A stretch of 64,000 nt of DNA from Patescibacteria group bacterium (GTDB lineage Bacteria; Patescibacteriota; Gracilibacteria; JAHISY01), in the NCBI GenBank assembly GCA_041665585.1, contig JBAYIN010000005.1, forward strand, positions 29,622-93,621, in the 5' to 3' direction. Within the stretch, counting starts at the first letter, position 1; the number at the start of each line of letters is the position of its first letter. The translations under genes and the position numbers were made by a program. This document shows, piece after piece, positions 3,970 through 62,016 of the stretch. Under the pieces are notes generated by a model. It was not told the origin of the DNA, searched no databases, and saw only the letters and a list, made by a program, of their open reading frames with translations.

Positions 3970-4777
3970 AGAACTCAGGTGGAATTTCCGCCGAAAAATT
4001 GTAATCTAAAATTTTGAGCTCGCCCGCGTGCAGTAGCATACGCGCATCTTGCGCATTGCCGTAAATCGGGTCACCGACGATCGGCATCCCCACTGCTGCG
4101 AGGTGCGCGCGAATCTGGTGCGTCCGCCCCGTCGTGATTTCGACTGCGAGCAAAGCAGTATTATTGTGCAGGCGTCTGACGACTTTCCAGAAAGTCTGTG
4201 CCGCCAGACCGATTTTCACGATTTCCATTTTGGGACCGACTTTTTTCAAATTCAAATTAATCTCGCCGGAATTTTCCCGCGGCAGCTTGGCGACGACGGC
4301 AAAGTATTTTTTGAAAACTTGGCGCGCCCGAAAAGCGTCTTCGAGCTTACGCGCGGTCCCCGCATTTTTCGCGAAAATGACCACGCCACTCGTCGCGCGG
4401 TCGAGGCGGTGGACGACAGTGAGGCGCAGATTTAGCAAAGTCTCGGCGCAGCTGCGCAGATCGTCGCCGTGCGTGCCGACACCCGCGTGTGTCGTGAGTC
4501 CCGCCCGTTTCGCGAAGGCAATCACATTTTTGTCTTCGAAAATAATCTGGTTGCCCGTGAGCTCAGAGAAAAATTTGCGCGGATCCGGCAGGAAAACTTC
4601 GACGACGGAATTGGCAGTGATTTTCGTTTCGGCTTTCAGTGGAATTTTCGCGACTTTGATTTCGCGCTTGCGAAAAAGCTTCTGCAGAAAAGTCCGTTTC
4701 AGAAACGGCAATTTTTCAGCGACGAATTTTTCGGCGCGGATTTCGCGAGTGGTTTTGAGTTCGAGCTTCAACTTCAC
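3959..4777 (-). CDS. RluA-family 23S rRNA/tRNA pseudouridine synthase
   Basis: 272 aa. Catalytic motif 'HRLDRATSGVVIFAKN'. C-terminal 'GRTHQIRAHL'. Confidence 0.9.
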   Translation of the reverse strand: MKLKLELKTTREIRAEKFVAEKLPFLKRTFLQKLFRKREIKVAKIPLKAETKITANSVVEVFLPDPRKFFSELTGNQIIFEDKNVIAFAKRAGLTTHAGVGTHGDDLRSCAETLLNLRLTVVHRLDRATSGVVIFAKNAGTARKLEDAFRARQVFKKYFAVVAKLPRENSGEINLNLKKVGPKMEIVKIGLAAQTFWKVVRRLHNNTALLAVEITTGRTHQIRAHLAAVGMPIVGDPIYGNAQDARMLLHAGELKILDYNFSAEIPPEFYAN

Positions 4778-4846
4778 AATTTTACTCGAAAAAAGTAGAA
4801 TCTTCGCATTGCTCAGGTAGTCGTGGTAAAAAATCTATCAACTATT

Positions 4847-4879
4847 AATCCCGAAGGGACCCCTTCGGGGCTATCAACT
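4847..4879. repeat. 33-nt double-hairpin element, copy 1
   Basis: 'aatcccgaagggaccccttcggggctatcaact'. An exact reverse-complement copy is at 37982..38014. It is flanked here by the 10-nt direct repeat 'ctatcaacta' (4834-4843 and 4871-4880). Confidence 0.9.
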
Positions 4880-4889
4880 ACAAACTGAC

Positions 4890-4973
4890 TGGGGTGTCGC
4901 CAATCACCGCTGAGCGGGACTTCGCTTCGCTCAGGCGGAAGGCATCCCGCCTAGGCGGGACATGCGGGGGCTT
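4890..4973 (+). pseudogene. Degenerate tRNA-Gln copy interrupted by GC hairpins
   Basis: It shares 'tggggtgtcgccaa', 'gcggaaggca' and 'catgcggggg' with the intact tRNA-Gln. The blocks are separated by the inserted hairpins 'ccgctgagcgg...' and 'tcccgcctaggcggga'. Confidence 0.6.
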
Positions 4974-5001
4974 AAATTAAAATGAATAGGGAGAATCAAA
5001 T

Positions 5002-5039
5002 TGGGGTGTCGTCCCGCTTAGCGGGATAAGGCAGCGGTT
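5002..5039 (+). pseudogene. tRNA-Gln 5'-half fragment with inserted hairpin
   Basis: 'tggggtgtcg' + 'tcccgcttagcggga' + 'taaggcagcggtt'. The D-arm sequence is replaced by the hairpin. Confidence 0.6.
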
Positions 5040-5054
5040 GAAAATTTAACTAAT

Positions 5055-5129
5055 TGGGGTGTCGCCAAGCGGTAAGGCAGCGGTTTCTGGAACCGCCATG
5101 CGGGGGTTCGAATCCCTCCACCCCAACCA
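5055..5129 (+). tRNA. tRNA-Gln: tRNA-Gln (anticodon CTG), CCA encoded
   Basis: Cloverleaf folded by hand. Acceptor tggggtg/cacccca. Anticodon arm gcggt-ttCTGga-accgc. T-arm ggggg-ttcgaat-ccctc. Confidence 0.9.
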
Positions 5130-5259
5130 ACAAAATGTTCTCGCCACAAAGTGGCGGGGTTATTTTGTTTGGGGTACGAGGGTGAAAACACCCGGGAGCA
5201 CAATCTTCGAATTTCACGAAACTTTCCGGCGCGTGCCGTCGCGGAATTTTGAATCTCGA

Positions 5260-5300
5260 CAAACTTCGAGCCAGCTTCGAATCCCTCCACCCCAACCAAC
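5260..5300. repeat. Direct repeat containing the tRNA-Gln 3' end (left island boundary)
   Basis: 5276..5300 is identical to tRNA positions 5107..5131 ('ttcgaatccctccaccccaaccaac'). The upstream 'caaacttcgagccagc' matches the repeat at 9926. Confidence 0.85.
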
Positions 5301-5403
5301 ACGGGCACCCATGCTCGACTCACTTGCCCTAGACATGGGGGTATAATGCTTAGTTCATTATAAAAGGAATATAATTAAACTCGGATCGATAATCATTTTC
5401 AAT

Positions 5404-6582
5404 ATGACTGCACATGACCCAAAACAGGAAATCAATCAGCTCCAAGAGATTTTATGCAGCCCCTCTAAAAAAATAGGATTTCTTTTTGGTGCAGGAATCT
5501 CAATGAAAAAAACCGATGGTACTGACTTAATCATCGGAACAGATGGAATGACTTCCGCCGTGATAAGCGAATTTATCTCTCCGCAAAAAGAAGCGATTGA
5601 GCTGATTAAAACTGAAATTGAGACTGATAGTAAAAAATTCAACATAGAAACTTTACTTTCTAAAATTTCTGAAAAGGCAAGGGCGGCTGGCAGTGAAAAA
5701 TTATGTGGACTGAAAAAGATCGAGTTGGAAAAATTACGAGATGATATAGAAAATGAAATAAGAGAGAAGGTGTCAGTCCACAATACTAGCCATCCATCTC
5801 ATTCAGAGATTGAAAAAACAAATCACAATACATTTGCGAAATGGATTAAAAATGCGGATAGAGAATTTCCAGTGGAAATTTTTACTACAAACTATGATTA
5901 TCTCTTGGAGCTTGCCCTTGAAAAACAGCAAATCCCATATTTTGATGGATTTGTCGGTAGTTATAAAGCATTTTTTTGCCCAGAATGGATTGAGGCAGAC
6001 TCTCCAGTAAAAGATTGGGCAAAATTATGGAAGCTGCATGGCTCCCTTGGGTGGGAACAAAACGAGGTAAAGGAAATCGTTAGAACATCAGGGGTAAGTG
6101 GTAAGGCAATGATCTATCCATCGTTTTTAAAGTATGACCACTCAAAAAAACAGCCATACCTGAGTTACATGGACAGACTTTCTTATTTCTTGCGACAAGA
6201 GGATTCCGTTCTTTTTATTTGTGGCTATTCTTTCGGTGATGAGCATATCAACGAGATAATTCTGACATCACTTACGCGGTCACGTTCTTCGCATGTGTTT
6301 ATATTCAAAAACAGTGAATTAGCAGAGAAAGATTTTTTATCTACAGAAATTGCACAAAAAAATTCCAAAGTGTCGGTTTATGCGAAAAGATCTGCCGTCA
6401 TTGGTTGTAAATTTGGGGATTGGAGACTTGCTTCGAGAGAAGATCAGTTAGATTTTTATAAAGAAGACAAGCCAACAACAGCCAAAGATTGGGATGGTGG
6501 CGGAGAATTATCGCTAGGTGACTTTAAAGAATTCGCTGCTTTTTTATCAGAATTTTACAGAAAACATAATGCCCAAAAATAA
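5404..6582 (+). CDS. SIR2-like (SIR2_2 family) NAD-utilising defence effector
   Basis: 392 aa. 'GFLFGAGIS', 'FTTNYDYLLE', 'KLHGSLGW' and 'ICGYSFGDEHIN' are hallmarks of defence-type SIR2 domains. Confidence 0.8.
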   Translation: MTAHDPKQEINQLQEILCSPSKKIGFLFGAGISMKKTDGTDLIIGTDGMTSAVISEFISPQKEAIELIKTEIETDSKKFNIETLLSKISEKARAAGSEKLCGLKKIELEKLRDDIENEIREKVSVHNTSHPSHSEIEKTNHNTFAKWIKNADREFPVEIFTTNYDYLLELALEKQQIPYFDGFVGSYKAFFCPEWIEADSPVKDWAKLWKLHGSLGWEQNEVKEIVRTSGVSGKAMIYPSFLKYDHSKKQPYLSYMDRLSYFLRQEDSVLFICGYSFGDEHINEIILTSLTRSRSSHVFIFKNSELAEKDFLSTEIAQKNSKVSVYAKRSAVIGCKFGDWRLASREDQLDFYKEDKPTTAKDWDGGGELSLGDFKEFAAFLSEFYRKHNAQK

Positions 6583-8353
6583 TGAAACATTTATCGGTAA
6601 AGTTAGTAGCGTGACTGGTAGCACGCTTGCTATTGAGTTGGACGAAAATATTCGATCAACTCTTCCGATTATTGATGGTGTTTTGTATCGTGTTGGTCAA
6701 ATAGGTTCTTTTATCAGGATTCCACTTGGTTATGTGAATCTGTATGGCGTCATTACCCAAGCTGGTTCTGATGCGATTCCTGAAAAATTAGTTGAACAAG
6801 AGAATATGCGAGGATCTCGCTGGATAAAAGCAACTCTGATTGGTGAAGGAATCGGTAAAAAATTTGAAAAAGGAGTTCTAAAATTTCCAATTGCCGATGA
6901 CGAAGTGCATTTAGTTACAAAGGACGATCTCGAACTTATTTATGGAGGATTGGACGAAGCAAAATCAATTGCCGTTGGACAGGTGAGCGCATCTGAGAGT
7001 CTTTCTGCGAGAATCGACATTGATCGATTTATTAATCGACATTGCGCTATTTTAGGATCTACTGGAAGTGGAAAATCAAACACTGTTTCGGTTATCTTGG
7101 AGGCCATTGCGACAAGAAAAGATAAAAATGGGGATGACATAAAAAGCACAAGAATTCTTTTAATTGATCCTCATGGAGAATATGGAGAAATTCTGAGTGA
7201 ATATAGCCAAATTTTTAAAGTTGGGGCAGATACTTCAAAACAAGAAAAAGAACTTATAATTCCATATTGGGCATTGCCTTTTCAGGAATTCATAAAAAGT
7301 TTTCCAGGTAAATTAAACGAAAAGCAGGAAGAATATATTCGGGAAAAAGTTTTAAAGAAAAAAATTGAGGCTTCTAAAAATCTAAATACCGCGCCAAAAG
7401 AGGAGGCGATTACGGCTGATAGTCCGATACCTTTTAGCGTTAGGCAGTTATGGTTTGAATTGGATGATTTTGAAAGGAAGACTTTCAAAAAAGACAGAAT
7501 TACTACCACTCTAGATTCAGCTAATCCTGGAAATGCTCAAAACTTAAAATCTAATAAATACGAACCTGTTGGCATTGGGTCATCCGAGCCATTTTTAAAC
7601 AACTCAGCACAGGGAGTCTTAGGATTTCTTACTTTAATGAAAAATCGACTTTTAGATACGCGGTTTAGATTTCTATATGAATTGGGTAATTTAACACCAG
7701 CGTTGGACGGGAAAATTATAGGCGATCTAGATACTCTCATTCAGGAGTGGGTAGGGGCAGAAAAACCAATAACGATTCTCGACCTCTCTAGTATCCCTTC
7801 GGAAATTATGGGATCAATCTCAGGTTCTTTGCTGTCGATTATTTATGAGTTTTTATACTGGGGGCAAAATGAGGATGTAGGTGGGCGTAAAACGCCTATA
7901 TTGCTGGTCTTGGAAGAAGCCCATAATTACTTAAAATCAGGAGAAAATTCTATTGCCTCGCGTACTGTTCAGAAAATAGCAAAAGAGGGGCGTAAATATG
8001 GATCTGGTCTTTTACTTGTAACACAGCGACCGTCAGAATTGGATGAGACTGTTTTAAGTCAGTGCGGATCAGTTATCGCGTTACGAATGACAAACTCAAA
8101 CGACCGAGGACGTATAAAAAATTTCGTTGAAGATTCTTTGAACGAATTAGTGGAGCTTTTGCCAAGTTTGAGAACTGGTGAGGGTTTAATCATGGGTGAG
8201 TGCGTAAAACTTCCAATGCGCACAAAGTTTAGTAAAGCAAAAGAATCCAAAAGCACAGATCCGCTCGTCTCCGAACAATGGAAGAAAGATTTGCCGAATG
8301 CAGCAAATTATAAAAAGGTGCTTGAATTTTGGCGTAATAACAAATTTACTTAA
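6569..8353 (+). CDS. HerA-like (DUF87) P-loop ATPase, partner of SIR2
   Basis: Walker A 'GSTGSGKSN', Walker B 'ILLVLEEAHNY', and 'LLLVTQRPSEL'. The start is taken at the ATG at 6569 (MPKNNETFIGK), which overlaps the SIR2 stop by 14 nt. Confidence 0.85.
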   Translation: MPKNNETFIGKVSSVTGSTLAIELDENIRSTLPIIDGVLYRVGQIGSFIRIPLGYVNLYGVITQAGSDAIPEKLVEQENMRGSRWIKATLIGEGIGKKFEKGVLKFPIADDEVHLVTKDDLELIYGGLDEAKSIAVGQVSASESLSARIDIDRFINRHCAILGSTGSGKSNTVSVILEAIATRKDKNGDDIKSTRILLIDPHGEYGEILSEYSQIFKVGADTSKQEKELIIPYWALPFQEFIKSFPGKLNEKQEEYIREKVLKKKIEASKNLNTAPKEEAITADSPIPFSVRQLWFELDDFERKTFKKDRITTTLDSANPGNAQNLKSNKYEPVGIGSSEPFLNNSAQGVLGFLTLMKNRLLDTRFRFLYELGNLTPALDGKIIGDLDTLIQEWVGAEKPITILDLSSIPSEIMGSISGSLLSIIYEFLYWGQNEDVGGRKTPILLVLEEAHNYLKSGENSIASRTVQKIAKEGRKYGSGLLLVTQRPSELDETVLSQCGSVIALRMTNSNDRGRIKNFVEDSLNELVELLPSLRTGEGLIMGECVKLPMRTKFSKAKESKSTDPLVSEQWKKDLPNAANYKKVLEFWRNNKFT

Positions 8354-8366
8354 TTATTTTTTCATT

Positions 8367-8579
8367 ATGGATAGAACTCCAGTCTCATCATCGAACATAG
8401 CCGCCATTGGCTATGATTCAGATACGGAAACTTTAGAAATAGAGTTTCTGAATGGCACCTTGTATGAATATAGAAATGTTCCTCAGGTTATTTATGATGA
8501 GTTAATGCGTGCCCCATCTCGCGGAATATACCTTAATAAAGAAATTAGGAATGCCTATCCCTACTCAAAAATAGGTTAA
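8367..8579 (+). CDS. KTSC domain protein
   Basis: 70 aa. 'VSSSNIAAIGYDSDTETLEIEFLNGTLYEYRNVPQVIYDELMRAPSRG' matches the KTSC consensus. The start is 13 nt after the HerA stop. Confidence 0.85.
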   Translation: MDRTPVSSSNIAAIGYDSDTETLEIEFLNGTLYEYRNVPQVIYDELMRAPSRGIYLNKEIRNAYPYSKIG

Positions 8580-8593
8580 TAATTTTGTTGTCG

Positions 8594-8680
8594 ATGCCTA
8601 TCACTGCTTCCGACCTCTACTCGTACACCTCCTGCCCGCACCGCGTCTACCGCGGCGCGCACGATAACTGCCACCTCTGA
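8594..8680 (+). pseudogene. N-terminal remnant of a RecB/Cas4-like nuclease
   Basis: The 28-codon ORF 'MPITASDLYSYTSCPHRVYRGAHDNCHL*' resembles the conserved N-terminus of putative RecB-family nucleases and then terminates. Confidence 0.4.
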
Positions 8681-8988
8681 AAATTATTTCCCTATCTCTA
8701 TCTCCCCTTCTTTCACCCTCAACCCCACCTTCAAACATCCAATCGCCTCGCGCTTTTCTTCCTTCGTCCCCTCTCGCAAAACTCCCGCTTTCGCGAGGGC
8801 AGGCACCCTTCGCATACTTTCGCACATCCACTTTTGGAATTTTCGCCTCGCCATCCAGCACTCCAGATGTGAATTTCTAATCCAAACAGCAATTATTGAC
8901 GATATGATTACCTATTTAAAATTATCTGTAAGACATTTGCATTACAGATTATTTTAAGTTAAAATTGAGGTGTATTAATTAAAAAAAC

Positions 8989-9234
8989 ATGCCTACCCCA
9001 ACTCTGACTTTCCGCACCAACCTCCGTGATCAAGCGGCTAAAAAAGCTCAAAATATGGGTATTCCGCTCTCTTTGGTTTTGAATAATGCCTTGAGGGTTT
9101 TTCTCAAATCTGATGATAGCGTCATTATCGGTAAGCCTCAAATGATTGAGCTTCCAGCCGATTTGCAGCAAAAGGTTGATGAATTGGGTGAACTGGCTCA
9201 AAAGGCTGTCGCAAAAAAACTCGCTAAAAAATAA
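8989..9234 (+). CDS. Small protein, possible antitoxin
   Basis: 81 aa. It sits immediately upstream (3-nt gap) of a 123-aa ORF. 'TFRTNLRDQAAKKAQNMGIPLSLVLNNALRVFL' looks like a ribbon-helix-helix/DinJ-type N-terminus. Confidence 0.4.
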   Translation: MPTPTLTFRTNLRDQAAKKAQNMGIPLSLVLNNALRVFLKSDDSVIIGKPQMIELPADLQQKVDELGELAQKAVAKKLAKK

Positions 9235-9237
9235 TTA

Positions 9238-9609
9238 ATGTTACTTTTACCTCATTCTATTGTTTTTTATGAATTAGAACCCATCGGTGAATTTTTCCCA
9301 ATTTCATCGATTGTAAAAGCAGCCAAAAAAATTAAAGACGGTCTCGGTATTCCAATTTCGGGTGCTTCGGTAAATTCCAAACTCATCAAAGTTTATCTAA
9401 CCAGCAAACAAGCAGCAGGAAGGGCGGTTTTTCTCGTTAAGCTAAAAGAGGGATACATTATTCCTGTTGTAGTCAGGCTGAAAAAGGATGCTGTCGGTAA
9501 AAATATCACTCCTAAAGATAAAGCTTTCGCTGCTGTTTTAGCAAAAAATCTTGCGCTGATTGCCGAAGATTTAGCCGATGGTAGTTTTGATTTACTGCCT
9601 TTGAAATAA
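9238..9609 (+). CDS. Hypothetical protein, possible RelE/HigB-like toxin partner
   Basis: 123 aa. The segment 'AAGRAVFLVKLKEGYIIPVVVRLKKDAVGKNITPKDK' loosely resembles RelE/HigB-type toxins. Confidence 0.3.
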   Translation: MLLLPHSIVFYELEPIGEFFPISSIVKAAKKIKDGLGIPISGASVNSKLIKVYLTSKQAAGRAVFLVKLKEGYIIPVVVRLKKDAVGKNITPKDKAFAAVLAKNLALIAEDLADGSFDLLPLK

Positions 9610-9925
9610 TTATGCGCTACTACAAAAATCTAAGCCCCAAGGAACGTCGCCGTACAATCTTAAAAGCAGTCGCTTTCAGCGAGGCGATGGAAAATAATAA
9701 GGTAGCTTTTTCGCATTGCAGGAAAGAATTGAAAAACTGGACGATAAAAAGTGATTTTTTGCTTATTTAAAGCGAAATGATGCTCACTTTTAAGTTAGAA
9801 TTAAAATCACTTTTTAGTGTCTCATTTGTCTCATTTTTCTAGGCGACTCACCTGCCTTCTGGCGACTTCGGAAGAATGCCTCTAAAATCCCTGCAGGGTT
9901 GTGACACTAGACTCACCTGTTCAAC

Positions 9926-9985
9926 CAAACTCCGAGCTAGCTTCGAATCCCTGTCTGCCGGCAGGCAGGCCTCCACCCCAACCAA
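9926..9985. repeat. Direct repeat of the tRNA-Gln 3' end, split by a hairpin (right island boundary)
   Basis: 'caaactccgagctagcttcgaatccc' + a ~20-nt insert containing the palindrome 'ctgccggcag' + 'tccaccccaaccaa'. Confidence 0.8.
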
Positions 9986-10005
9986 TAGCTTTTAATCAAA
10001 AATCT

Positions 10006-11027: not shown

Positions 11028-13364
11028 TCACTCCAGAACCTCGAATTTGACCTGACTGGAGAGCTCGCCCGAACGCGCAGTCGCCGTGTGCTGACCGACT
11101 TTGGGCTGCCATTCGGTGCGGTAGTCGGGTGCTAGAGCGGTACCAATGGAAGCGCCGTCAATGAACCACTCCACACTGCTGACATCTGCCGCTGCGCGCG
11201 CTTCGAAAATAATTTTTTCGTCAGTGTCGGGCACGAGCGGGTCCAGCTCAAAACTGTCGTGGATATTTGGTTTAGTAATCGTGAGACTTGGCTCGGTGGC
11301 AGTGGATGCCGGAGCCTGGCAGAGTGGTGAATGCAGGCGCGGCGGTTCTGTCCAGCCGTTTTCACGCGCCCACTTCTGTAATTCGAGCGGAAAAATCGCG
11401 AACACTTTCGTCTCAGTCGTTTCTGCCGGACAACCCTTGCCGAGCAGTCCGTTGCGCTGGTCAAGCACGACTGGCTGAAAAATGTCATCCGGAACTCGGG
11501 GTTCGGTGCCGGCGCTGAAAGATTCCAGAATTGTCTGCGGACAATACTCCGTCGGTAATTTCCCGGACAGACGGCAAATCGTCGTCGGAATGATTCCGGC
11601 TGGTCGCGCGAAATTGTGCGGCGGCAGGCCGCGCGTCGCCGCGAGCATGACTTCGTGAAAAATCGGACCTGCGCCCGTGACACCGGAAGTTCCGCGCATG
11701 GGAGAATTGTCCGCATTGCCGACCCAGACTCCGACAATGCGGTCGGGTGTGAAGCCGAGCGTCCAATTGTCGCGCGAATTGCGCGTCGTGCCTGTCTTGG
11801 CAGCGACCGGGAAATCGAAAGAGAGTGGCGAATTTTCGCCGAATTCGGGCAGGCGCGCGTTTTGATCCGCGAGCATGTCGGTGATGAGCCAAGCGACGCG
11901 CGCATCGAGAATTGGCGTGCCGGACTGAGCGGGTGCGGTCTGAAAAACTTGCAGCGGCAGAGTCACACCGCCGCGCGCGAAGATGCCATACGCCTGCGCC
12001 AATTCCAGCAGGCGGACTTCGCCGTCGCCGAGCGTCAGTGCTAGACCGTAAAATTCCGGCTCTTGTTTGAGCGTCGTGATGCCGGCAGCTCTCAGCAAGT
12101 TTAATAATTTTTCGACGCCGACTTTTTCGAGGACTTTGACTGCGGCGATGTTGTAGGAATTCGCGAGTGCCTCGCGGTAGCGCACCAGTCCGTGGTAACC
12201 GTAATCGTAATTGCGCGGAATGTAGGGATTGCCTTCCTGCGTGAAGAATTGCGTCTCGATGTCAGCGACGGTCGTGGCTGCCGTCTCCCCTGCCGCGAGC
12301 GCGAGCGCGTAAGTGAAAGGCTTGAGCGCGGAACCGGGTTGGCGAGGCGCGACCGCGACATTCACTTGACCATTGTTTTCCGTGTCCCAATAATCCGCCG
12401 AACCAAGCAGCGCGAGTAATTCACCCGTGTGTGCATCGAGCACGACCACTGCCGCGTCCGTGACATTTTTGTCGGCTAATTTCGCAAGTTCGTTTGTGAC
12501 GATCAACTCGATTTCGCTTTGGAGCTCGAGGTCAAGCGTCGTTTCAATTTTAACGCCAGCTTGCAATTCCTCAGCGTAATTTTGCTGCAGCCAAGCGATG
12601 AAATGCGGTGCGTGCATTTTAATTTTGTCGGCGGCGAGTCTGAGCGGTTCAGCAGTGGCACTGGTGAATTCGTCGGCAGAAATTTTGTCCGTCTCGCGTA
12701 GAGCCGTGAGTACAGTTTGTTGCCGCGCTTGGGCCGCCTCAGGATTCACGAATGGATCGAGATTCACCGGCGACTGCAGCAGTCCAATCAGTAAAGCTGA
12801 TTCTGCCAGACTGAGTTCGCCGACTTGCTTGCCGAGATAAATTTGCGCCGCTGCGCTGATGCCGTAAGCCTGATGACCGAAGTAAGCCGTATTGAGATAA
12901 CTTTCTAAAATTTCGGACTTGCTCAGCTGTCGCTCCAGGCGCAGCGCGAAATAAGCTTCTTGAATTTTGTAACAATAACCACGGTGCTCCGGCTGCAGAC
13001 GATTGCGCACGAGCTGCTGCGTAAGAGTGCTGCCGCCCGCGACGATGCGTCCCGCTTGGAAATTCAAATACGCCGCGCGCAGAATCCCACGCAGACTTAT
13101 GCCCGGATGACTGTAAAAATCGCGGTCTTCTGTCGCGAGCAGTGCGGCGACAATTGTCGGTGGAATATCCGGCAGCGCGATTTTGTCCTGCGCGCCATAA
13201 TCAGCACTGCGCAGGGAATAAAGCAGCTGACCATCACGAGCGAGAATCTGCGTCGGTTCACGCAGGGCTGGATTCGTCAGATTGCCGGGTAGCGGCCAGC
13301 AGAATAGCGCCACCAGCAAGGTCAGCGCTATTCCGAGAACGAACCAACTTTTCTTGAGTTTCAT
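11028..13364 (-). CDS. pbpC: Bifunctional penicillin-binding protein, PBP1C-type (glycosyltransferase + transpeptidase)
   Basis: 778 aa. GT51 motifs 'EDRDFYSHPGI' and 'GGSTLTQQL'. Transpeptidase motifs SxxK 'SALK', SxN 'SYN' and 'KTGTT'. C-terminal PBP1C-type beta domain. Confidence 0.85.
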   Translation of the reverse strand: MKLKKSWFVLGIALTLLVALFCWPLPGNLTNPALREPTQILARDGQLLYSLRSADYGAQDKIALPDIPPTIVAALLATEDRDFYSHPGISLRGILRAAYLNFQAGRIVAGGSTLTQQLVRNRLQPEHRGYCYKIQEAYFALRLERQLSKSEILESYLNTAYFGHQAYGISAAAQIYLGKQVGELSLAESALLIGLLQSPVNLDPFVNPEAAQARQQTVLTALRETDKISADEFTSATAEPLRLAADKIKMHAPHFIAWLQQNYAEELQAGVKIETTLDLELQSEIELIVTNELAKLADKNVTDAAVVVLDAHTGELLALLGSADYWDTENNGQVNVAVAPRQPGSALKPFTYALALAAGETAATTVADIETQFFTQEGNPYIPRNYDYGYHGLVRYREALANSYNIAAVKVLEKVGVEKLLNLLRAAGITTLKQEPEFYGLALTLGDGEVRLLELAQAYGIFARGGVTLPLQVFQTAPAQSGTPILDARVAWLITDMLADQNARLPEFGENSPLSFDFPVAAKTGTTRNSRDNWTLGFTPDRIVGVWVGNADNSPMRGTSGVTGAGPIFHEVMLAATRGLPPHNFARPAGIIPTTICRLSGKLPTEYCPQTILESFSAGTEPRVPDDIFQPVVLDQRNGLLGKGCPAETTETKVFAIFPLELQKWARENGWTEPPRLHSPLCQAPASTATEPSLTITKPNIHDSFELDPLVPDTDEKIIFEARAAADVSSVEWFIDGASIGTALAPDYRTEWQPKVGQHTATARSGELSSQVKFEVLE

Positions 13365-16300
13365 TCTTTGACTTCAAACCAAGTTCCATCAGTCTGACCG
13401 AAAGTTTCCGGGAAATACATTTCGTAGGCACGCGCCGGACGCAAGCGGAATTTACCCGGTGTCGTCGCACGCACTAAGTACTCGTATTCGTAAACTCCCG
13501 CCGGCAAATCATCGGCGAACAAGAAGACCTGATCATCGCGCAACTCGCGGTGATTGAAGTGCCAGAGATTATTTTGCCAGCATTCGTAGCTCCAGTAGTC
13601 TTGGCAGCTGTCAGCGTTGATTGCGCCTTCGAGCAAAGTCTGCTGACTCGTCAGCAAATTCGTGTCGATGGATTCCATACCCGCTGGGAGCGGACTCTCG
13701 ATGGCGACGAAGTGGCGGTCAGCCGGAACTGTGATTGTGAGCTTCACTTTGTAAGTCTCGCCGAGTTGCGCCTCGGTGAGCGCGGAGTCGAATTCGCCTG
13801 ACTTCAAAGGTAAAAGTTCACGCACGATACCGAAACCTTCCTCAGCCGGTGGTAAATCATCCGCAGTGTAAAAGTAAGAAAACAGCACATCGTAATAAAG
13901 TCGACCCGTGCCCGTCTTGCCAATCTTGATTTCATTGTCTTTACCTTGCTTCAAATTATTGAGCGCAATCTCGACTTCACCGCGCGTCAGAATGTTTTTC
14001 TGGTTGAATTGATTCGTCAAAATTTGTTTGCCATTTACGCTGACACCGCTCGTCATATTCGCGCTGAGCTCGCCCGTATTTTTGAGGAATTCGACCAGTG
14101 TCAGAATCGACACCGTCGTGGATTGGGTCGTGTCCCAGTGTCCGTCTTCGCGCACCGCGAGCAAGTAGCGGACGATGCGCGGAATCAAAGCATTCTCAGA
14201 ATCGAGGCGTACGAGCGCCTGTAAAACCGTCGCCGTCGTGCGTGTGTCGGTATTCATGAGCGGACGGTAAAGATCTTCCGTCGCTTCGACGAAGCTCGCC
14301 CCGCGCGCTTCGGTCTTCACATTTGCCAAGATGCCATCGAGTAAGGCGCGCGCTTTTTTCAAGCTTTCCTCCGAACCATATTTTTGCAAAGCCATCGTGA
14401 GCTGCGCCTGACTGAAGAGCGGCAAATTTTTGCGTTGCTCGTAAAGATTATTCAGCAAGCTGATGTCCGTGCTGCCGCCTTCCGCCAAGACGAAAAGAAT
14501 GTAAGCGCGCACAGCCAAATCGATTGGCTGTTTCAGATTTTGATTGCGCAATACACCCGTGAGATAGCGGTGCGCGCGATTCAGCACTTCGGCATCGACA
14601 GCGTAGTTCGCTTTTTGCGTTTGGTTCAAAGCGAAAACAATGTAAGCCGTGAGATAAGGATAACTTTCAGTGCTCCCCGCCCAGTAGCCGAAGCCGCCAT
14701 CACCGCGTTGGAATGAATACAATTTCTGCAAACCACTCGTAATGTTATTTTCGAGCTCAGCATCAGTCGTGATTTTGAAAGCTTCGAAGCCTTGTAATTG
14801 TGCCACCGCGATATTCGGCAAGAAGCTCGAGACGGTTTGCTCGGCGCAGCCGTAGGGAAATTGCACGAGGTAGTCGAGGCCGCCCGGCAAATAAGTCGCG
14901 AGCGTCGGCGAAACACTGATATCCAAATTGCCCGAACTCGCTTCGTCCGCAGTCGGCGCGGACAGAGTCTCCGTCGCGCTGTCTTCAGTGTAGCCAGAAG
15001 TTGCCACTGATTGCGGCGTGCCGAAAATATAGACTGGAATACTCTCTTCGATTTCATCGCGTCCTTCAGCCGTCGTCGCCTTGAAATCCAGCGTCAGCTT
15101 GTCAGTGCGACTGACGGTGATGGGGAAATTAATTTTGCTTTGACCGCCCGCGGCCACTTTGATTTTTTGGGCAGTCGCGCCACGCGACTCGAAGCCCGCG
15201 CCAGTCAGACTCACCGCGAATTCAGCGTCTTGGTCCAGGAAATTATGGACGATGGCACCGAGCTCGATTTCGTCTCCGACCACCGCGAAGCGCGGACGCA
15301 CGGAGCGCACGATGACCTTTTTGGTTTCGACGATCTCCTCCGCCACCGCACCGAATTCACTCGTGCGCGTGCTGCCAATTGCGAGCAATTTCCAAGTCGT
15401 CAAATTGTCGGGCAATTTGAAGTCAATCTGCGCGACACCACTTTGGTCAGTGACGATGCGCGGATTCCAGTAAGCCGTATCCTGGAAATCCCCGCGCTTG
15501 TCCGCATTGACATCCGCGCCGCCACCGCCTTTCGAGCCCGGTTTGAAGCGTTCGATTAGGTAGGTTAGCAGTTCGCTCGTCATGACACCGAGTCCGCGCT
15601 GCGCGTAAAAATTCTTGACCAAATCCGGCAGCTCGAATCCAGTGAGCGCAAGCACACTCATATCGACCGTGCCGAGCGAGAGTTCAGTTTCAATCGGTTT
15701 GCCAGCGGCGTCAGTCGCCTGCAATGTCACGCGGACAGTTTCGCCCGGACCGTATTTTTGTTTGTCGGTCTTGAGCGTGAGCTGCAGTTCTTTCGGTTTG
15801 GTTTCGACGAGCAATTTAGCGTAGCCAATTTTGAAAGCGGGTGCGCCCGTGTCGAGTCCGTTTTCATTGAAAGTTTCGCCCGCGCGCGGTTTGATGATGA
15901 CGACTGAGACGAAGGCATTCGGAATCAAGTCTTTGGTAATCGGAATTTCAATCGACTGCGCATTGCTTGTGATTGTGACGACTTCTTTGCGAATGATATT
16001 CTCGCGCTCGACGGTGATGAGCGCTTTGACATTCGCGCCCTGGTACGGCGATTTGACGAGTAATTTCGCCGTGTCACCGACGGCGTATTCCGGCTTGTCT
16101 GCAATCACATCGATGCGGTCGTTATTTTCGTGCGGCCAATTCACATAAGTGTCAGACCAGGCGTAGATACTCGTACTGGCTTTCGCTGCGCGACCTTTGC
16201 TATCCGCCGTGCTCGCGACCGCGACGAACTGCCCGCCATTTGGAATCTTGATTTTGGCGATTGCCTTGCCATCCGCGTCGGTCGCGACGCTCGTCTCGCT

Positions 16301-19300
16301 GACGAAAGTATCTTTGGCTGCGTTGTCGTAGTAGTAGCTGCCGTCCACATTTTTCTTTTTGATGGAATTCCACTCGCGGGAGAAAAGTTGGATTTGCACC
16401 TTTTGTCCGGCGAGCACTTTGCCCTCAGGCGAGACCGTGACAATTTTTAAGCTGGCATTTTCACCCGGCTGCACGGAATAATCTTCCGGACGAATTCCGA
16501 CATAGACGCTCGATTTATGCACGGGCACAGAGACGCGGTTGCTGACGATTTGATTATTCGGATCGGTGACATCCGCTTCCAGCGTGAGCACTTGGCTGAC
16601 GCTTTTGTCGGCGAGATCGACTGGGAAGCTCAGAGCGAGTTTGCCGTCCGCGTCTAGTTCACCGCTGCCTTCGAGGAGCAAGTCGGACGAACGCGTGCAG
16701 TCCCACCAGCACCAAGCGTCTTCCAGCGCGAAAGAATACCAATCGTCCGTGTATTGATTGAAAAAATAATCGGTGGTTTTGATGCGCCAATTCACCGGCG
16801 CATTCGCGAGCGGCGCGCCAAAATAATAGGCGCCTTCAATGCCGACTTTGATTTGGTCCTTGTCGAAATATTCTGTCGCGGCTGGTGTCAGATCGACGCG
16901 GTACTCCGGCTTGCGGTAAGCCAGCACGGAAAATGACGCGCTGCCGTAATTATTGCCGATGTCCGCATCCGGCATAGTTTGCACGACGAGATTGTAATCA
17001 CCCAAAGCCGCCGCCGAATCGAGCGGTAATTCGTCCGAGAAACTGCCGAATTGCGTGAGATTCAGTGTTTTGTTGTAAATCTCATTACCTTTGGCATCGT
17101 TGATTTTGACGAGCGCCTGCCGTTTTTCTCCCGGCAAATTCAGCACGCCGTCGGAATCGCGCAGTCGAACGATACCTTTGAAATGCACCGTGTCGCCCGG
17201 ACGATAGACCGGTCGTTCGGTGTAAATGTAGGAATCCATTTGGTAATTCGGAAAATCCGTCCCGCGGAAATCCGAACCGAAACCGAAACTCCACGGCTCG
17301 ATGCCGTTATTCCAATTGCTGCCGATGAAAGCGAAATCCGCGCCGTGTTCCGCCGTCACCCAAAATTCCGGCTGATATTCGTTGTAGGGCGTCGTGAATT
17401 TTTTGAGATCCAATTTGGTTGTGAAAAATCCGTCCGCGTCAGTCTTGCCCGTGACGACTTCTGCGCCGCCGAGCGAATTAAATTTGATCAGCGTGTCGGG
17501 CAGTGGCGCGCCAGTCTGCAGGTCAATCGCGAAGACGAGTGCCTGTCCGCCGGAGTATTTCAGCGTCAGCCCGATATTCGTCAGCGCGAAATACTGGTAA
17601 TTAACGATTTCTGAATAATCGCCCCAATCTTGTTTGTACTCTGGCGCCTGCAAAGTCATTACATAAATTCCGGAGGAAAGCGGTTCGCCGGTTTTTTCAT
17701 TCAGGTCGAATGGAATCGCTTCCCACTCGTCGTGCTTATTTTTGGGCGGTGCGAAACTCCATTTTTGGTAGTCGGCAAATTGGCTCAGATTTGGACTATA
17801 CTCATAATCCTGGCTGCGCTGATTGCGAATATCGAGAAAATCCGCCAGCGAAAGTTTGGCGAGCGCGACATCCATTCGGCTCACATTCACCGCATTCAGA
17901 TAATAAATCGGCGCCTTGCCGCTCTCGAAAATTCCAAAATCGCCGGTAGAGTGAATGAAAACTTTTGACGGAATCGGTTCGGTCTTGAAAGTGAGCGCGT
18001 AATCCTTGGGCAAATTTTGACCGAAGCGATCGTGGACAGACTGATCGACGGTCAAAGTGTAAGTCGTACTCGGCACGAGCTGCGGATAAAAACTTATTTG
18101 TTTCGGATCCCACTGAACTGCACGCAATTCTAATTCGTCCCAACCGTCAACTTTTGGGGAGATTGTGATTTCGCCTGCCAAATCAACATCGGATAGTTCG
18201 TTGGAAAATTGCAACTCGATTAAACCGCTTGAATAACTTCCTCTTTCCACGACCATCGCTCCGACCGTCGCGAAATCCACCGGATACTCAGTCGGACTGC
18301 CGAGCCCGCCCAGCGTACTCATGATTCCAGCCGCGACCGTGACGGTGTAATTCGCGTCGAGTGCGAGCGGCACGGCTGGCTCGACGACGAGCACCGTTTC
18401 ATCCGTCATCATTTTTTTATCGACTTCCTTTGTGCCGTAGCTGATGTTTTTAATCTTGAGTGGAACTGTCGAGTTCAGTTGCGGATTTTTGGGATTTAAT
18501 TTTTTCTGCGCCAGTGTGATTTTTTCGTCCGCACTCGCGAGGTCGATTGGCAGATTGAAATTCAGCTCAATCTTGCTGCTCGGTCCAGCTTCCCGACTGC
18601 CCGGTGCCGGATTAGTACTCACGACCTGCGGACGCACCGTGTCGAAGCTGAAACTAAAATCCTCCGTCGTCGGATCACCCGAGAGCGTCGTGAGTCCCGT
18701 CGGAATAGAGACGGTGAAGTGTGTTGCCGGCGGAAGTTTCTCTGTCGGTACGAATTTCGCCGTCGTCGTACCGAGCCAGCGCCAGCGACCGGAAATTTCC
18801 GGCGTAAGCTTGACCGACCAATTCTCAGGATTCGTCTTATTTTGAACGATGGTCAGCGGCACCATCGGTCGATCGAAGACCAGCGTGATTTCCGCGTCCA
18901 CGGGAATTTCTGTGGTCGCGTCAGCGGGAGCATGCGTGGCGAGAATCGGATCGCCGGAAACTGTGAATTGATATTCCAGCGTTTTGCCGAGACGCTGACC
19001 GTCAGCGCGCAAGGCCTGTCGATCCAGCTCAAATTTGTAAACTGCCTGCAGAGTCAGACTGCCGGCGGGGTCGAAGACGAGCGTCTGATCATCGAGCCAC
19101 TTCAAATCGCCCGCGAGCCCAACAGGAATAGTTAAATTTTCTTCGACGCTTCGGCGATCCATCGCGAAAGGCAAACCGAAACGCAAGTCCGAACCAGCGG
19201 CGACTTTTTGATTTTGGTCGAAGCTGAATTGTGGAGTGGGACTTTGCCGCAAAAATAGAGCCAATCCGAGCGCCACCAAAATCACGGCAGCAATGCCGAG

Positions 19301-19357
19301 CAGAATTTTTGGTTTAAAAAACTGGAACCAAAGTCTTTGCAAATTCAGGGTGGGCAT
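13361..19357 (-). CDS. Bacterial alpha-2-macroglobulin family protein (YfhM-like)
   Basis: 1998 aa. N-terminal TM anchor. Thioester motif 'PYGCAEQ'. Its stop codon overlaps the start of pbpC by 4 nt. Confidence 0.9.
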   Translation of the reverse strand: MPTLNLQRLWFQFFKPKILLGIAAVILVALGLALFLRQSPTPQFSFDQNQKVAAGSDLRFGLPFAMDRRSVEENLTIPVGLAGDLKWLDDQTLVFDPAGSLTLQAVYKFELDRQALRADGQRLGKTLEYQFTVSGDPILATHAPADATTEIPVDAEITLVFDRPMVPLTIVQNKTNPENWSVKLTPEISGRWRWLGTTTAKFVPTEKLPPATHFTVSIPTGLTTLSGDPTTEDFSFSFDTVRPQVVSTNPAPGSREAGPSSKIELNFNLPIDLASADEKITLAQKKLNPKNPQLNSTVPLKIKNISYGTKEVDKKMMTDETVLVVEPAVPLALDANYTVTVAAGIMSTLGGLGSPTEYPVDFATVGAMVVERGSYSSGLIELQFSNELSDVDLAGEITISPKVDGWDELELRAVQWDPKQISFYPQLVPSTTYTLTVDQSVHDRFGQNLPKDYALTFKTEPIPSKVFIHSTGDFGIFESGKAPIYYLNAVNVSRMDVALAKLSLADFLDIRNQRSQDYEYSPNLSQFADYQKWSFAPPKNKHDEWEAIPFDLNEKTGEPLSSGIYVMTLQAPEYKQDWGDYSEIVNYQYFALTNIGLTLKYSGGQALVFAIDLQTGAPLPDTLIKFNSLGGAEVVTGKTDADGFFTTKLDLKKFTTPYNEYQPEFWVTAEHGADFAFIGSNWNNGIEPWSFGFGSDFRGTDFPNYQMDSYIYTERPVYRPGDTVHFKGIVRLRDSDGVLNLPGEKRQALVKINDAKGNEIYNKTLNLTQFGSFSDELPLDSAAALGDYNLVVQTMPDADIGNNYGSASFSVLAYRKPEYRVDLTPAATEYFDKDQIKVGIEGAYYFGAPLANAPVNWRIKTTDYFFNQYTDDWYSFALEDAWCWWDCTRSSDLLLEGSGELDADGKLALSFPVDLADKSVSQVLTLEADVTDPNNQIVSNRVSVPVHKSSVYVGIRPEDYSVQPGENASLKIVTVSPEGKVLAGQKVQIQLFSREWNSIKKKNVDGSYYYDNAAKDTFVSETSVATDADGKAIAKIKIPNGGQFVAVASTADSKGRAAKASTSIYAWSDTYVNWPHENNDRIDVIADKPEYAVGDTAKLLVKSPYQGANVKALITVERENIIRKEVVTITSNAQSIEIPITKDLIPNAFVSVVIIKPRAGETFNENGLDTGAPAFKIGYAKLLVETKPKELQLTLKTDKQKYGPGETVRVTLQATDAAGKPIETELSLGTVDMSVLALTGFELPDLVKNFYAQRGLGVMTSELLTYLIERFKPGSKGGGGADVNADKRGDFQDTAYWNPRIVTDQSGVAQIDFKLPDNLTTWKLLAIGSTRTSEFGAVAEEIVETKKVIVRSVRPRFAVVGDEIELGAIVHNFLDQDAEFAVSLTGAGFESRGATAQKIKVAAGGQSKINFPITVSRTDKLTLDFKATTAEGRDEIEESIPVYIFGTPQSVATSGYTEDSATETLSAPTADEASSGNLDISVSPTLATYLPGGLDYLVQFPYGCAEQTVSSFLPNIAVAQLQGFEAFKITTDAELENNITSGLQKLYSFQRGDGGFGYWAGSTESYPYLTAYIVFALNQTQKANYAVDAEVLNRAHRYLTGVLRNQNLKQPIDLAVRAYILFVLAEGGSTDISLLNNLYEQRKNLPLFSQAQLTMALQKYGSEESLKKARALLDGILANVKTEARGASFVEATEDLYRPLMNTDTRTTATVLQALVRLDSENALIPRIVRYLLAVREDGHWDTTQSTTVSILTLVEFLKNTGELSANMTSGVSVNGKQILTNQFNQKNILTRGEVEIALNNLKQGKDNEIKIGKTGTGRLYYDVLFSYFYTADDLPPAEEGFGIVRELLPLKSGEFDSALTEAQLGETYKVKLTITVPADRHFVAIESPLPAGMESIDTNLLTSQQTLLEGAINADSCQDYWSYECWQNNLWHFNHRELRDDQVFLFADDLPAGVYEYEYLVRATTPGKFRLRPARAYEMYFPETFGQTDGTWFEVKE

Positions 19358-57148: not shown

Positions 57149-57512
57149 ATATGCGAACCGTTACTAAGAAATGCTCTTTGAAATTACGGAATCTTGAGGC
57201 GCAAGTGGTGATGATCTAAAAATAATCGATTATCGCCGATTGTGCCTTAAGCTTCACATAGTAGTAATAAGTCTGGTTATAAACTTTCCCAAAGGTTTAT
57301 GGTCACTATTAACTCGCTCTAAACGGGCTTGGTGTTTAGAGAGAAGTAATAGACAGATTATAAGTTAAGGTAACTTAATTTATAGGAGATTAATACAGTA
57401 ATGTTTTATTTTTTACTCTAAGCTCTCATCTGATACTGAAAATACTGTTTGAAACTTGAGGCTTTTTTATTGTGTAAAATTTTTCACAATTAAAAAGGCT
57501 AAAGCGGGTAAA

Positions 57513-60284: not shown

Positions 60285-60299
60285 ATTTATTTTTTAAAT

Positions 60300-61793
60300 A
60301 TGAGCAATTTAGATAAAACTTATTTTTCGGAGATTTTCAATGTCGATCATTCTATAGTGGAAAGTTATGGAGCGTTAGACATATCGCTTGTATGTGATAA
60401 TCCGGCTTTTGTCGATCCGTTTCTTATTTTCGCAAATCCGGAATATAAAAATCTTCATGACTTTATTATTGAATATTTAAAATTTTTAAGGGATTTATCG
60501 CAAAAGAGTGACTCATTGGATTTAGAAGATGGTATTTTTAAACACTATTATAAATTTCCTGAGGTAAAAGAGGTTTGGCTAGGGTACTCTGCCATTGGTA
60601 ATGCCGGCTTAGGTAATTCCAAAGTATTTGCAGATTCTTTGTATAGAAATTTAAATAAAATTTTTTCTAATTTCGGCAAAGAAAAAGAAGGAATAACAAA
60701 ATCTCAACATCTCGAGAAGCTTTGTCTGATTGAAGAAGGCATAGGTGTTGACAAGATAAGTGATTTTACGATCAACTTGATAAAAGAGTTTTTTTTACGA
60801 TACACAGAAAAATTTGCACAAAAACATATCGACAAAAGTCTTCTAAAAGAATTTGCAGTCCCCAAGGTATCATTTGATTTTGAAAATCAAATTTGGAAAG
60901 GAAGTAAATTCATTCTGCCTTACATTACAAGAAATGGAAAAGAACAATTCGTTCTTTTGGTGCCGAAAGACATAATTGCAAAGTATGATACTTGGATTTC
61001 AAGAAACGATTTTCTGAAAAACGATACGAGCATTTTCGCCTCTATTGAAAATGACGAAATTAGGGCAAAAATAAATAAATATTTTAATGATCAACTGAAT
61101 ATTAAAATTACTAAACATGGACAAGAAAAAGATTTTTCTAAAAAAAGCAGGAAGGGGGCTTTGCAAAAGACGATGCGAGAGTTCCCTGCGATTGTTGACT
61201 ACTACATAAGATATAAAGAGTCAGAAGAAGACAAGGCATTAGAAAATAATTTGTTGGATGCCGAAAACGTCGATTTGTATTTAGATGTTGCGAACATCAA
61301 AAGAGAATTAAGAAAAAGGAAATTTGGGAAAATTACGGTTATTGATGACTGCATCCAGAGAATTTTATTTTTCAAACAAACACTGGAATCGAATAGTAAT
61401 TCTTTATACCTTAAAGAGAAATCGTTACAAGAAAAGCAGTTGCAATTGATGTTTAAGAATGCAACTTACGGATCACTCTTTGATTATAATTCAGAAGTTA
61501 ATAATGGAAGAGGTCCAATAGATTTTATTGTCTCGTTTGGGATAAATGAAAAAATTGGAATAGAGTTTAAATTAGCCTCTAATAGCAAACTAAAACAAAA
61601 TTTATTAAACCAAGGGAAAGTTTATCAGGATGATTCTAATCTTAAACATGTAATAAAAGTTATTTTCTTTTTTTCAAATCAAGATTTAGAAGCGATACAA
61701 AAAGTGTTAAGTGTACTTAAAAAAAGTGTTGATAATCGTGAAATTTTTCTGATTGATTGTAGAAAAAAAGAATCTGCATCTAATCAAAAATGA
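60300..61793 (+). CDS. Uncharacterised protein with C-terminal PD-(D/E)XK-like nuclease motif
   Basis: 497 aa, AT-rich, 15 nt downstream of the RM gene. C-terminal 'EKQLQLMF...GRGPIDFIVSFGINEKIGIEFKL' fits an E...D...ExK pattern. The N-terminal ~380 aa has no motif I recognise. Confidence 0.5.
   Translation: MSNLDKTYFSEIFNVDHSIVESYGALDISLVCDNPAFVDPFLIFANPEYKNLHDFIIEYLKFLRDLSQKSDSLDLEDGIFKHYYKFPEVKEVWLGYSAIGNAGLGNSKVFADSLYRNLNKIFSNFGKEKEGITKSQHLEKLCLIEEGIGVDKISDFTINLIKEFFLRYTEKFAQKHIDKSLLKEFAVPKVSFDFENQIWKGSKFILPYITRNGKEQFVLLVPKDIIAKYDTWISRNDFLKNDTSIFASIENDEIRAKINKYFNDQLNIKITKHGQEKDFSKKSRKGALQKTMREFPAIVDYYIRYKESEEDKALENNLLDAENVDLYLDVANIKRELRKRKFGKITVIDDCIQRILFFKQTLESNSNSLYLKEKSLQEKQLQLMFKNATYGSLFDYNSEVNNGRGPIDFIVSFGINEKIGIEFKLASNSKLKQNLLNQGKVYQDDSNLKHVIKVIFFFSNQDLEAIQKVLSVLKKSVDNREIFLIDCRKKESASNQK

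Positions 61794-61941: not shown

Positions 61942-62016
<75 letters not shown>

Follow-up and report, generated by a model that had tools for sequence, protein, structure and literature searches.

What is a gene for a KTSC-domain protein doing behind a SIR2–HerA pair, and does it belong to the anti-phage system that the pair represents? The question is raised by positions 5404-8579 of a 64,000-nt stretch of DNA from a Patescibacteria group bacterium (the window, by which we mean that whole stretch; GenBank assembly GCA_041665585.1, contig JBAYIN010000005.1, positions 29,622 to 93,621 of the forward strand), where a SIR2 gene, a HerA gene and a short KTSC gene follow one another. The initial annotation of this locus, made from the sequence alone, regarded the KTSC gene as not standard for a SIR2–HerA system. 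That view does not hold: KTSC is invariably present in the clade to which this system belongs, and it is the C-terminal domain of the validated HerA of Paenibacillus sp. 453MF. The third gene of the window is the split-off form of that prototype domain, and the locus is very likely, judging by its genes, an intact anti-phage system of the type known from Paenibacillus sp. 453MF, with KTSC encoded separately after HerA. The three genes are:

5404-6582, forward strand: predicted SIR2_2-family NADase effector, 392 aa, with N163, D165 and H212 present.
6569-8353, forward strand, from ATG: predicted HerA/DUF87 hexameric ATPase, 594 aa.
8367-8579, forward strand, from ATG: KTSC protein, 70 aa, the counterpart of prototype HerA residues 630-696.

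The layout of the operon is as initially described, with a 14-nt overlap between the SIR2 and HerA genes and a 13-nt gap between the HerA stop and the KTSC start. The source contig is public (ENA ERZ27249449 k141_733987, 113 kb), and the genes called on it are the identical three, and the trio, with an identical HerA protein, is present in two further samples (three samples in all). Every motif quoted in the initial annotation was found at its place, namely GFLFGAGIS (residue 25), TTNYD (161), LHGS (211) and GYSFGDEH (274) in the SIR2 protein, and Walker A GSTGSGKSN (163) and Walker B LLVLEEAH (445) in HerA. The SIR2 protein matched Pfam SIR2_2 (E = 8.6e-21), the HerA protein matched DUF87 (E = 1.1e-35) as well as HerA_C, and the 70-aa protein matched KTSC (E = 2e-25) across all 58 profile positions. 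The PADLOC models for SIR2 (PDLC04093, E = 1.5e-111) and HerA (PDLC04105, E = 7.7e-150) matched their proteins at full length, and no PADLOC model matched the KTSC protein in a scan of the window proteins. The closest solved SIR2 is that of Paenibacillus (8w9l, E = 1.6e-57), with which the TTNYD and LHGS blocks align; N163, D165 and H212 have been named as putative catalytic residues of the Paenibacillus protein (PMC11472057), and the same Asn, Asp and His are retained here. All testable features of SIR2–HerA systems in the sense of PADLOC or DefenseFinder are therefore present: the profile matches, the Walker A and B motifs, adjacency and co-direction of the two genes, and the catalytic Asn, Asp and His. 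The core is the known family that it had been taken for.

Structural comparison identified the third gene. Among solved HerA structures, that of Paenibacillus sp. 453MF is the closest (8wiv, E = 6.4e-141), its chain residues 11-604 aligning with residues 6-592 of the window protein, and the window KTSC protein matches residues 630-696 of the same HerA (E = 2.4e-15). An AlphaFold2 model of the KTSC protein (predicted local distance difference test score, 95.3) superposed on the C terminus of several HerA chains of 8WLD and 8WIV with a template modelling (TM) score of 0.90, a root-mean-square deviation of 1.2 Å and 46% identity. Because the model superposes on the resolved C terminus of HerA, the KTSC domain is ordered in these cryo-electron microscopy maps. 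In the structure paper, Paenibacillus HerA consists of a beta-barrel, a RecA-like domain, a helix bundle and a “C-terminal arm domain (aa 576-696)”, and this arm is reported to wrap around the adjacent RecA-like domain and to lend stability to the split-spiral hexamer (PMC11472057). This published arm domain contains KTSC, a name that the paper nowhere uses. The domain set of the window system is thus that of the prototype, with one gene split. Among the 150 best HerA family representatives at 50% identity, only one was a HerA–KTSC fusion, and that one was nearest to the Paenibacillus protein; the split KTSC is the majority form and the fusion is the exception. Because HerA and KTSC are fused in the prototype and separate elsewhere, we infer that the two interact physically, and the solved structure backs this view.

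To what extent does KTSC accompany SIR2–HerA in other genomes? A survey of GTDB, in which 18 aligned HerA homologues served as the query and each species was represented by one genome, yielded 80 loci whose HerA proteins are 39-76% identical to that of the window. These loci come from lineages that include Desulfobacterota, Campylobacterota, Bacteroidota, Chlorobiota, Planctomycetota, Actinomycetota, Bacillota, Spirochaetota, Verrucomicrobiota, Omnitrophota, Patescibacteria and Proteobacteria, and the three-gene layout is not specific to the Candidate Phyla Radiation (CPR). A phmmer search of all six-frame open reading frames (ORFs) found KTSC as a separate ORF on the same strand downstream of HerA in every locus (80/80), which, together with the Pfam match, bears out the description of KTSC as a tightly linked third gene. 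KTSC directly follows HerA in 79 of the 80 loci, the exception being a Vicinamibacterales plasmid locus with an insertion. SIR2 was detected in 76 loci and lies directly upstream of HerA in 75 of them, with a distance of about 1.9 kb in the same Vicinamibacterales locus; the remaining four loci start at or just ahead of HerA. The estimated gaps between HerA and KTSC range from about -8 to +56 nt (56 loci; gap and start values are approximate).

Two of these loci depart from the common pattern. In the Vicinamibacterales plasmid locus (3998-7691), about 1.7-1.9 kb is inserted between SIR2 and HerA and again between HerA and KTSC, and in one locus, from Geobacter, HerA is followed by two KTSC ORFs (5063-5275 and 6097-6306). 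We also considered whether HerA and KTSC might be joined by programmed frameshifting or readthrough and rejected this candidate: KTSC lies in the +1 frame in the window, and the gaps in relatives keep no constant frame. Separate translation of KTSC is preferred because the length of the gap varies, and the frame with it, among relatives.

The association extends to plasmids. KTSC is rare in this compartment, with any match in 59 of 72,556 plasmids; set against this frequency, its presence in 80 of 80 related loci shows a co-occurrence far above random. HerA of this clade was found on 33 plasmids, at 33-43% identity, and in 13 of them KTSC lies 50-300 nt past HerA (tblastn coordinates); about a quarter of plasmid KTSC genes are linked to HerA. 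All seven trio-bearing plasmid records that we inspected are annotated as SIR2, ATP-binding protein and KTSC domain-containing protein: Citrobacter IncHI2 (NZ_CP070555), E. coli C5 plasmid A (NZ_CP010123), Sulfitobacter, Rhizobium etli, Paraburkholderia, Methylocystis and the haloarchaeon Natrinema. RefSeq already gives the third gene this KTSC label in many plasmids. Outside the clade, at HerA identities of 31% or below, no KTSC ORF was found within 3 kb (hidden Markov model E up to 0.1) in the distant HerA or SIR2–HerA loci of Klebsiella pZZ40-KPC, E. coli pSYM6, Piscirickettsia and Pseudoalteromonas. Within the clade, pairwise identities of HerA and KTSC are correlated (Spearman 0.65; 71 complete loci), and none of 500 permutations gave a value as high. 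Its constant presence downstream of HerA, together with this co-divergence, makes KTSC an integral, co-inherited part of one SIR2–HerA clade.

These data also bear on whether KTSC might be an unrelated hitch-hiker, or the operon a decaying, non-functional remnant. KTSC genes do occur in unrelated contexts, and the DNA around the operon lacks an integrase, while part of it is non-coding and its repeats are degenerate. Against this, gene order and strand are kept in 80 of 80 loci and in all inspected trio plasmids, in bacteria and archaea alike; the three ORFs are unbroken and retain every motif, and the copies in three independent samples are identical; and the KTSC–HerA fusion of the prototype directly attests that the two are functionally connected. 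Conservation of KTSC beside HerA rules out hitch-hiking, and taken as a whole this explanation is scarcely credible.

Away from the clade, KTSC is found in other settings. The closest KTSC homologues for which contigs were usable (67% and 59% identity) follow SIR2–HerA, whereas more distant ones (56% and 51%) lie in a prophage-like helix-turn-helix region and beside a RelA/SpoT gene. In JGI 3300083097 (4001-5387), a KTSC gene 51% identical to that of the window stands directly upstream of a RelA_SpoT-domain gene, with XisH/XisI and PIN genes nearby, in what looks like another conflict-system context. In Halorubrum, Haloarcula and Halorarius, KTSC genes (about 51-54% identical to that of the window) overlap or abut a gene for a ThiF-family adenylyltransferase, which is a recurrent context apart from HerA. 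Within the clade, the Natrinema zhouii plasmid NZ_CP084884 carries two ORFs of the ADP-ribosylglycohydrolase family (4377-5354) directly past the trio; they are apparently one split gene, and they suggest that some members of the SIR2–HerA–KTSC clade may be connected with ADP-ribose metabolism.

Several observations weigh against the interpretation of the locus as a working system of the Paenibacillus type. The NCBIfam equivalogs score far below their curated cut-offs, with 73 bits versus 500 for SIR2_antiphage (NF042942), 260 versus 850 for HerA_antiphage (NF042943) and 167 versus 800 for HerA_antiphage_2 (NF042944). There is no obvious Shine–Dalgarno sequence before any of the three genes, and promoter and terminator scans gave nothing significant above background level. 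The bracing role of the arm/KTSC region was read from the structure (PMC11472057), and the split-form systems, that of the window included, are known from their genes. The NCBIfam scores fall short because the clade is distant and not because function is lost; the window clade is distinct from the curated E. coli-type families.

How might the system work? The Paenibacillus system shields E. coli from phage through SIR2-dependent depletion of NAD+ (PMC11514289), and docking of its SIR2 ring on the HerA hexamer activates NADase, nuclease, ATPase and helicase functions (PMC11472057). By homology, the HerA hexamer of the window system would dock a ring of 12-14 SIR2 subunits; assembly together with phage-derived DNA cues would switch on SIR2's NADase (and nuclease) and HerA's ATPase/helicase, and the resulting loss of NAD+ would abort the infection. 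KTSC would be made in about equal amounts from its tightly spaced downstream gene and would most likely bind HerA 1:1 at the periphery of the hexamer, at the site that residues 630-696 occupy in the prototype, and there supply the distal portion of the arm bracing adjacent subunits. Contacts of KTSC with nucleic acid may occur as well. The window HerA keeps the proximal arm helices, because its alignment reaches prototype residue 604, along with the Walker motifs. For complex formation by KTSC in trans, as for its bracing role and for NAD+ depletion in this host, our argument is one of homology to the prototype.

It is possible that KTSC serves chiefly as a nucleic-acid-binding sensor or adaptor, which recognises ends or intermediates of phage DNA or RNA and loads or activates HerA–SIR2. 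This proposal, to which we give tentative credence, overlaps with the bracing model and differs from it in the role of KTSC alone. Iyer et al. described KTSC as a domain that binds DNA and is coupled to HerA-like ATPases, also in variants where an endoDNase replaces the sirtuin, and gave the HerA–KTSC coupling as an unpublished observation (PMC9503650); the same group has described KTSC as an RNA-binding domain (PMC7824862). The SIR2–HerA complex favours 3'-overhang and forked DNA (PMC11472057), and KTSC tracks HerA with no set neighbourhood; it is also met on its own in prophage-like and other conflict contexts. However, the literature that we found holds no demonstration of nucleic-acid binding by KTSC, a fold search with the KTSC model returned other KTSC proteins and HerA and no nucleic-acid-binding structure, and the structure paper gives the arm a role between subunits (PMC11472057).

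The small size of the KTSC gene and its position tightly downstream of a toxic effector system could also suggest a dissociable, antitoxin-like negative regulator that keeps SIR2–HerA silent until infection. Such a role would explain why the gene is separate, and the split form is indeed dominant (80 of 80 loci, against one fusion in 150 representatives). We nevertheless regard it as quite improbable, because the fused form is active: the Paenibacillus system defends although its KTSC cannot dissociate, and in the prototype the KTSC region sits within the assembled, enzymatically active complex. Antitoxins, moreover, usually precede their partner or vary far more than it does, whereas KTSC co-diverges steadily with HerA.

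Returning to KTSC as a separately encoded part of the arm, we note one speculative extension. Free KTSC could be a dissociable nucleic-acid-sensing or assembly-gating subunit that controls closure of the HerA hexamer and the switch-on of SIR2, making the system a three-subunit machine in most genomes. We consider this rather doubtful; if true, the fused prototype hides a regulatory step, and the widespread orphan domain KTSC would gain a first function.

The operon lies in an islet beside a tRNA gene, the other elements of which are:

5055-5129, forward strand: tRNA-Gln (CTG), called by ARAGORN and scoring 61 bits against Rfam tRNA; probable integration target of the islet.
5260-5301, forward strand: left direct repeat (repeat families D1 and D3), in which 5276-5301 is an exact copy of the tRNA-Gln 3' end at 5107-5132.
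8580-8988, no strand assigned: non-coding spacer, C-rich on the forward strand and outside the defence operon.
8989-9770, forward strand: three small islet ORFs (81, 123 and 52 aa) with gaps of 4 nt and 2 nt between them; islet cargo.
9926-9987, forward strand: right direct repeat of 5260-5301 (D1 73%, D3 93%), split by a 17-nt palindromic insert (I24).

The 26-nt sequence of the tRNA-Gln 3' end has two exact copies versus none expected, and the guanine–cytosine (GC) content is 0.38-0.40 over positions ~5-10 kb versus about 0.5 in the flanks, returning to about 0.5 past the right repeat. The repeats bound an islet of ~4.7 kb that is typical of tRNA-targeted integration, and the operon probably arrived by horizontal transfer within this low-GC islet. 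ORF and Pfam scans found no integrase or recombinase among the islet ORFs, a search with a flanking protein for an empty attachment site gave only the same contig, and an Rfam scan for non-coding RNA in the islet gave the tRNA only. The spacer at 8580-8988 contained no convincing ORF, and neither its minus-strand ORFs in a family search nor the spacer itself in Rfam gave a match; it may be a gene remnant. Upstream of tRNA-Gln, at 4883-5045, lie degenerate partial copies of its 5' half (4889-4903 and 5001-5040) and T-arm (4961-4977), none of which was recognised as a tRNA; they look like scars of repeated integration or excision.

The initial annotation placed the module on a tRNA island next to a toxin–antitoxin-like pair. 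The island is supported by the tRNA-Gln gene, the flanking repeats and the low GC content; the pair fared less well, with sub-threshold matches and no counterpart beside the closest relatives. The 123-aa ORF matches RelE (PF06296) with E = 0.016 and 15.9 bits against a cut-off of 27, and the 81-aa ORF matches an Arc-like phrog with E = 0.047, also below threshold; as a toxin–antitoxin pair, the small ORFs at 8989-9609 had no match in NCBIfam, PADLOC or the PDB. A RelE-like pair is plausible from these similarities. In the closest relatives (78-83% HerA identity), which include Candidatus Magasanikbacteria, the trio lies inside defence islands with McrBC, a type I restriction subunit, Eco57I-like enzymes and GmrSD as neighbours, and the small-ORF pair is not beside the trio in those that we inspected. 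Because the boundaries of the unit stay constant while the neighbouring genes differ, the conserved unit runs exactly from SIR2 to KTSC.

The host had been taken for a CPR-type bacterium, and its SecY agrees, being 91% identical to a Candidatus Peribacteraceae/Patescibacteria protein; the named relatives among the matches listed are Patescibacteria, Gracilibacteria or Peregrinibacteria. By this protein, the host is a Peribacteria-like CPR bacterium.

Elsewhere in the window, a second low-GC islet (57456-61793, GC 0.35-0.37) lies beside tRNA-Met (61942-62016). One gene of this islet specifies a 942-aa type IIG restriction-modification enzyme of Eco57I/MmeI-like character (Pfam Eco57I E = 1.8e-44, TaqI_C and N6_Mtase), and the next a 497-aa protein that matches nothing in Pfam even at E = 10; the islet is probably another horizontally acquired defence islet. 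At 11028-19357, on the reverse strand, a 1998-aa alpha-2-macroglobulin-like protein (MG2, A2M and TED_complement) adjoins a 778-aa PBP1c-type transglycosylase/transpeptidase. This pairing is known from Gram-negative bacteria, and its presence in a small-genome CPR organism is unexpected.

These results correct the annotation of the locus. The third gene is part of the system, and cloning and detection rules should include it; KTSC needs to be added to the latter because PADLOC has no model for it. The Paenibacillus-type SIR2–HerA clade always carries a KTSC module, normally as a separate gene, and the role proposed for KTSC here would, if borne out, be a first function for the KTSC family. The locus documents what is, by homology, an intact NAD+-depletion defence system, probably horizontally acquired, in the genome of a Peribacteria-like CPR bacterium. 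Within its clade the system is nothing unusual, and close copies are already present in public Magasanikbacteria genomes. In the searchable literature we found no description of a three-gene SIR2–HerA–KTSC operon or of the arm domain as KTSC, and nothing on SIR2–HerA in Patescibacteria; the only related statement is the passing remark of Iyer et al. on HerA–KTSC.

Among known structures, the stand-alone KTSC proteins 7X8C (Methanolobus vulcani) and 4RGI (Yersinia pestis YPO2434) resemble the window KTSC in fold and length (TM 0.92-0.96, 41-44% identity) and differ in being structural-genomics entries with no known function or HerA context. The SIR2–HerA systems of E. coli (8SU9, 8J4U) and S. 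aureus (8YHO, 8YHX) share the principle of a HerA hexamer that activates a SIR2 NADase ring, but they belong to distant clades (HerA E ~1e-26 to 1e-31, with mainly the C-terminal half matched), and KTSC is absent both from their solved chains and from the vicinity of comparable plasmid loci. The HerA chains of 8XAU, 9C1M and 8ZIQ, which we take to be from HerA–DUF4297-type systems, are related ATPases (E = 1e-51 to 1e-57); these systems, like the HerA–endoDNase variants, differ from that of the window in that its effector is SIR2 and not a nuclease. According to Iyer et al. (2022), HerA-like ATPases can pair with a KTSC gene when an endoDNase replaces the sirtuin (PMC9503650), and the one non-SIR2 HerA locus that we inspected had no KTSC. 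The nearest counterpart is the system of Paenibacillus sp. 453MF (8WIV, 8WLD and 8W9L; PMC11472057), which provides the closest solved relatives of both large proteins and shares with the window system the catalytic N163, D165 and H212, the Walker motifs and the domain set including KTSC. The two differ in that KTSC is fused through a linker of about 25 residues to give a 696-aa HerA in Paenibacillus, whereas the window encodes it as a separate 70-aa product.

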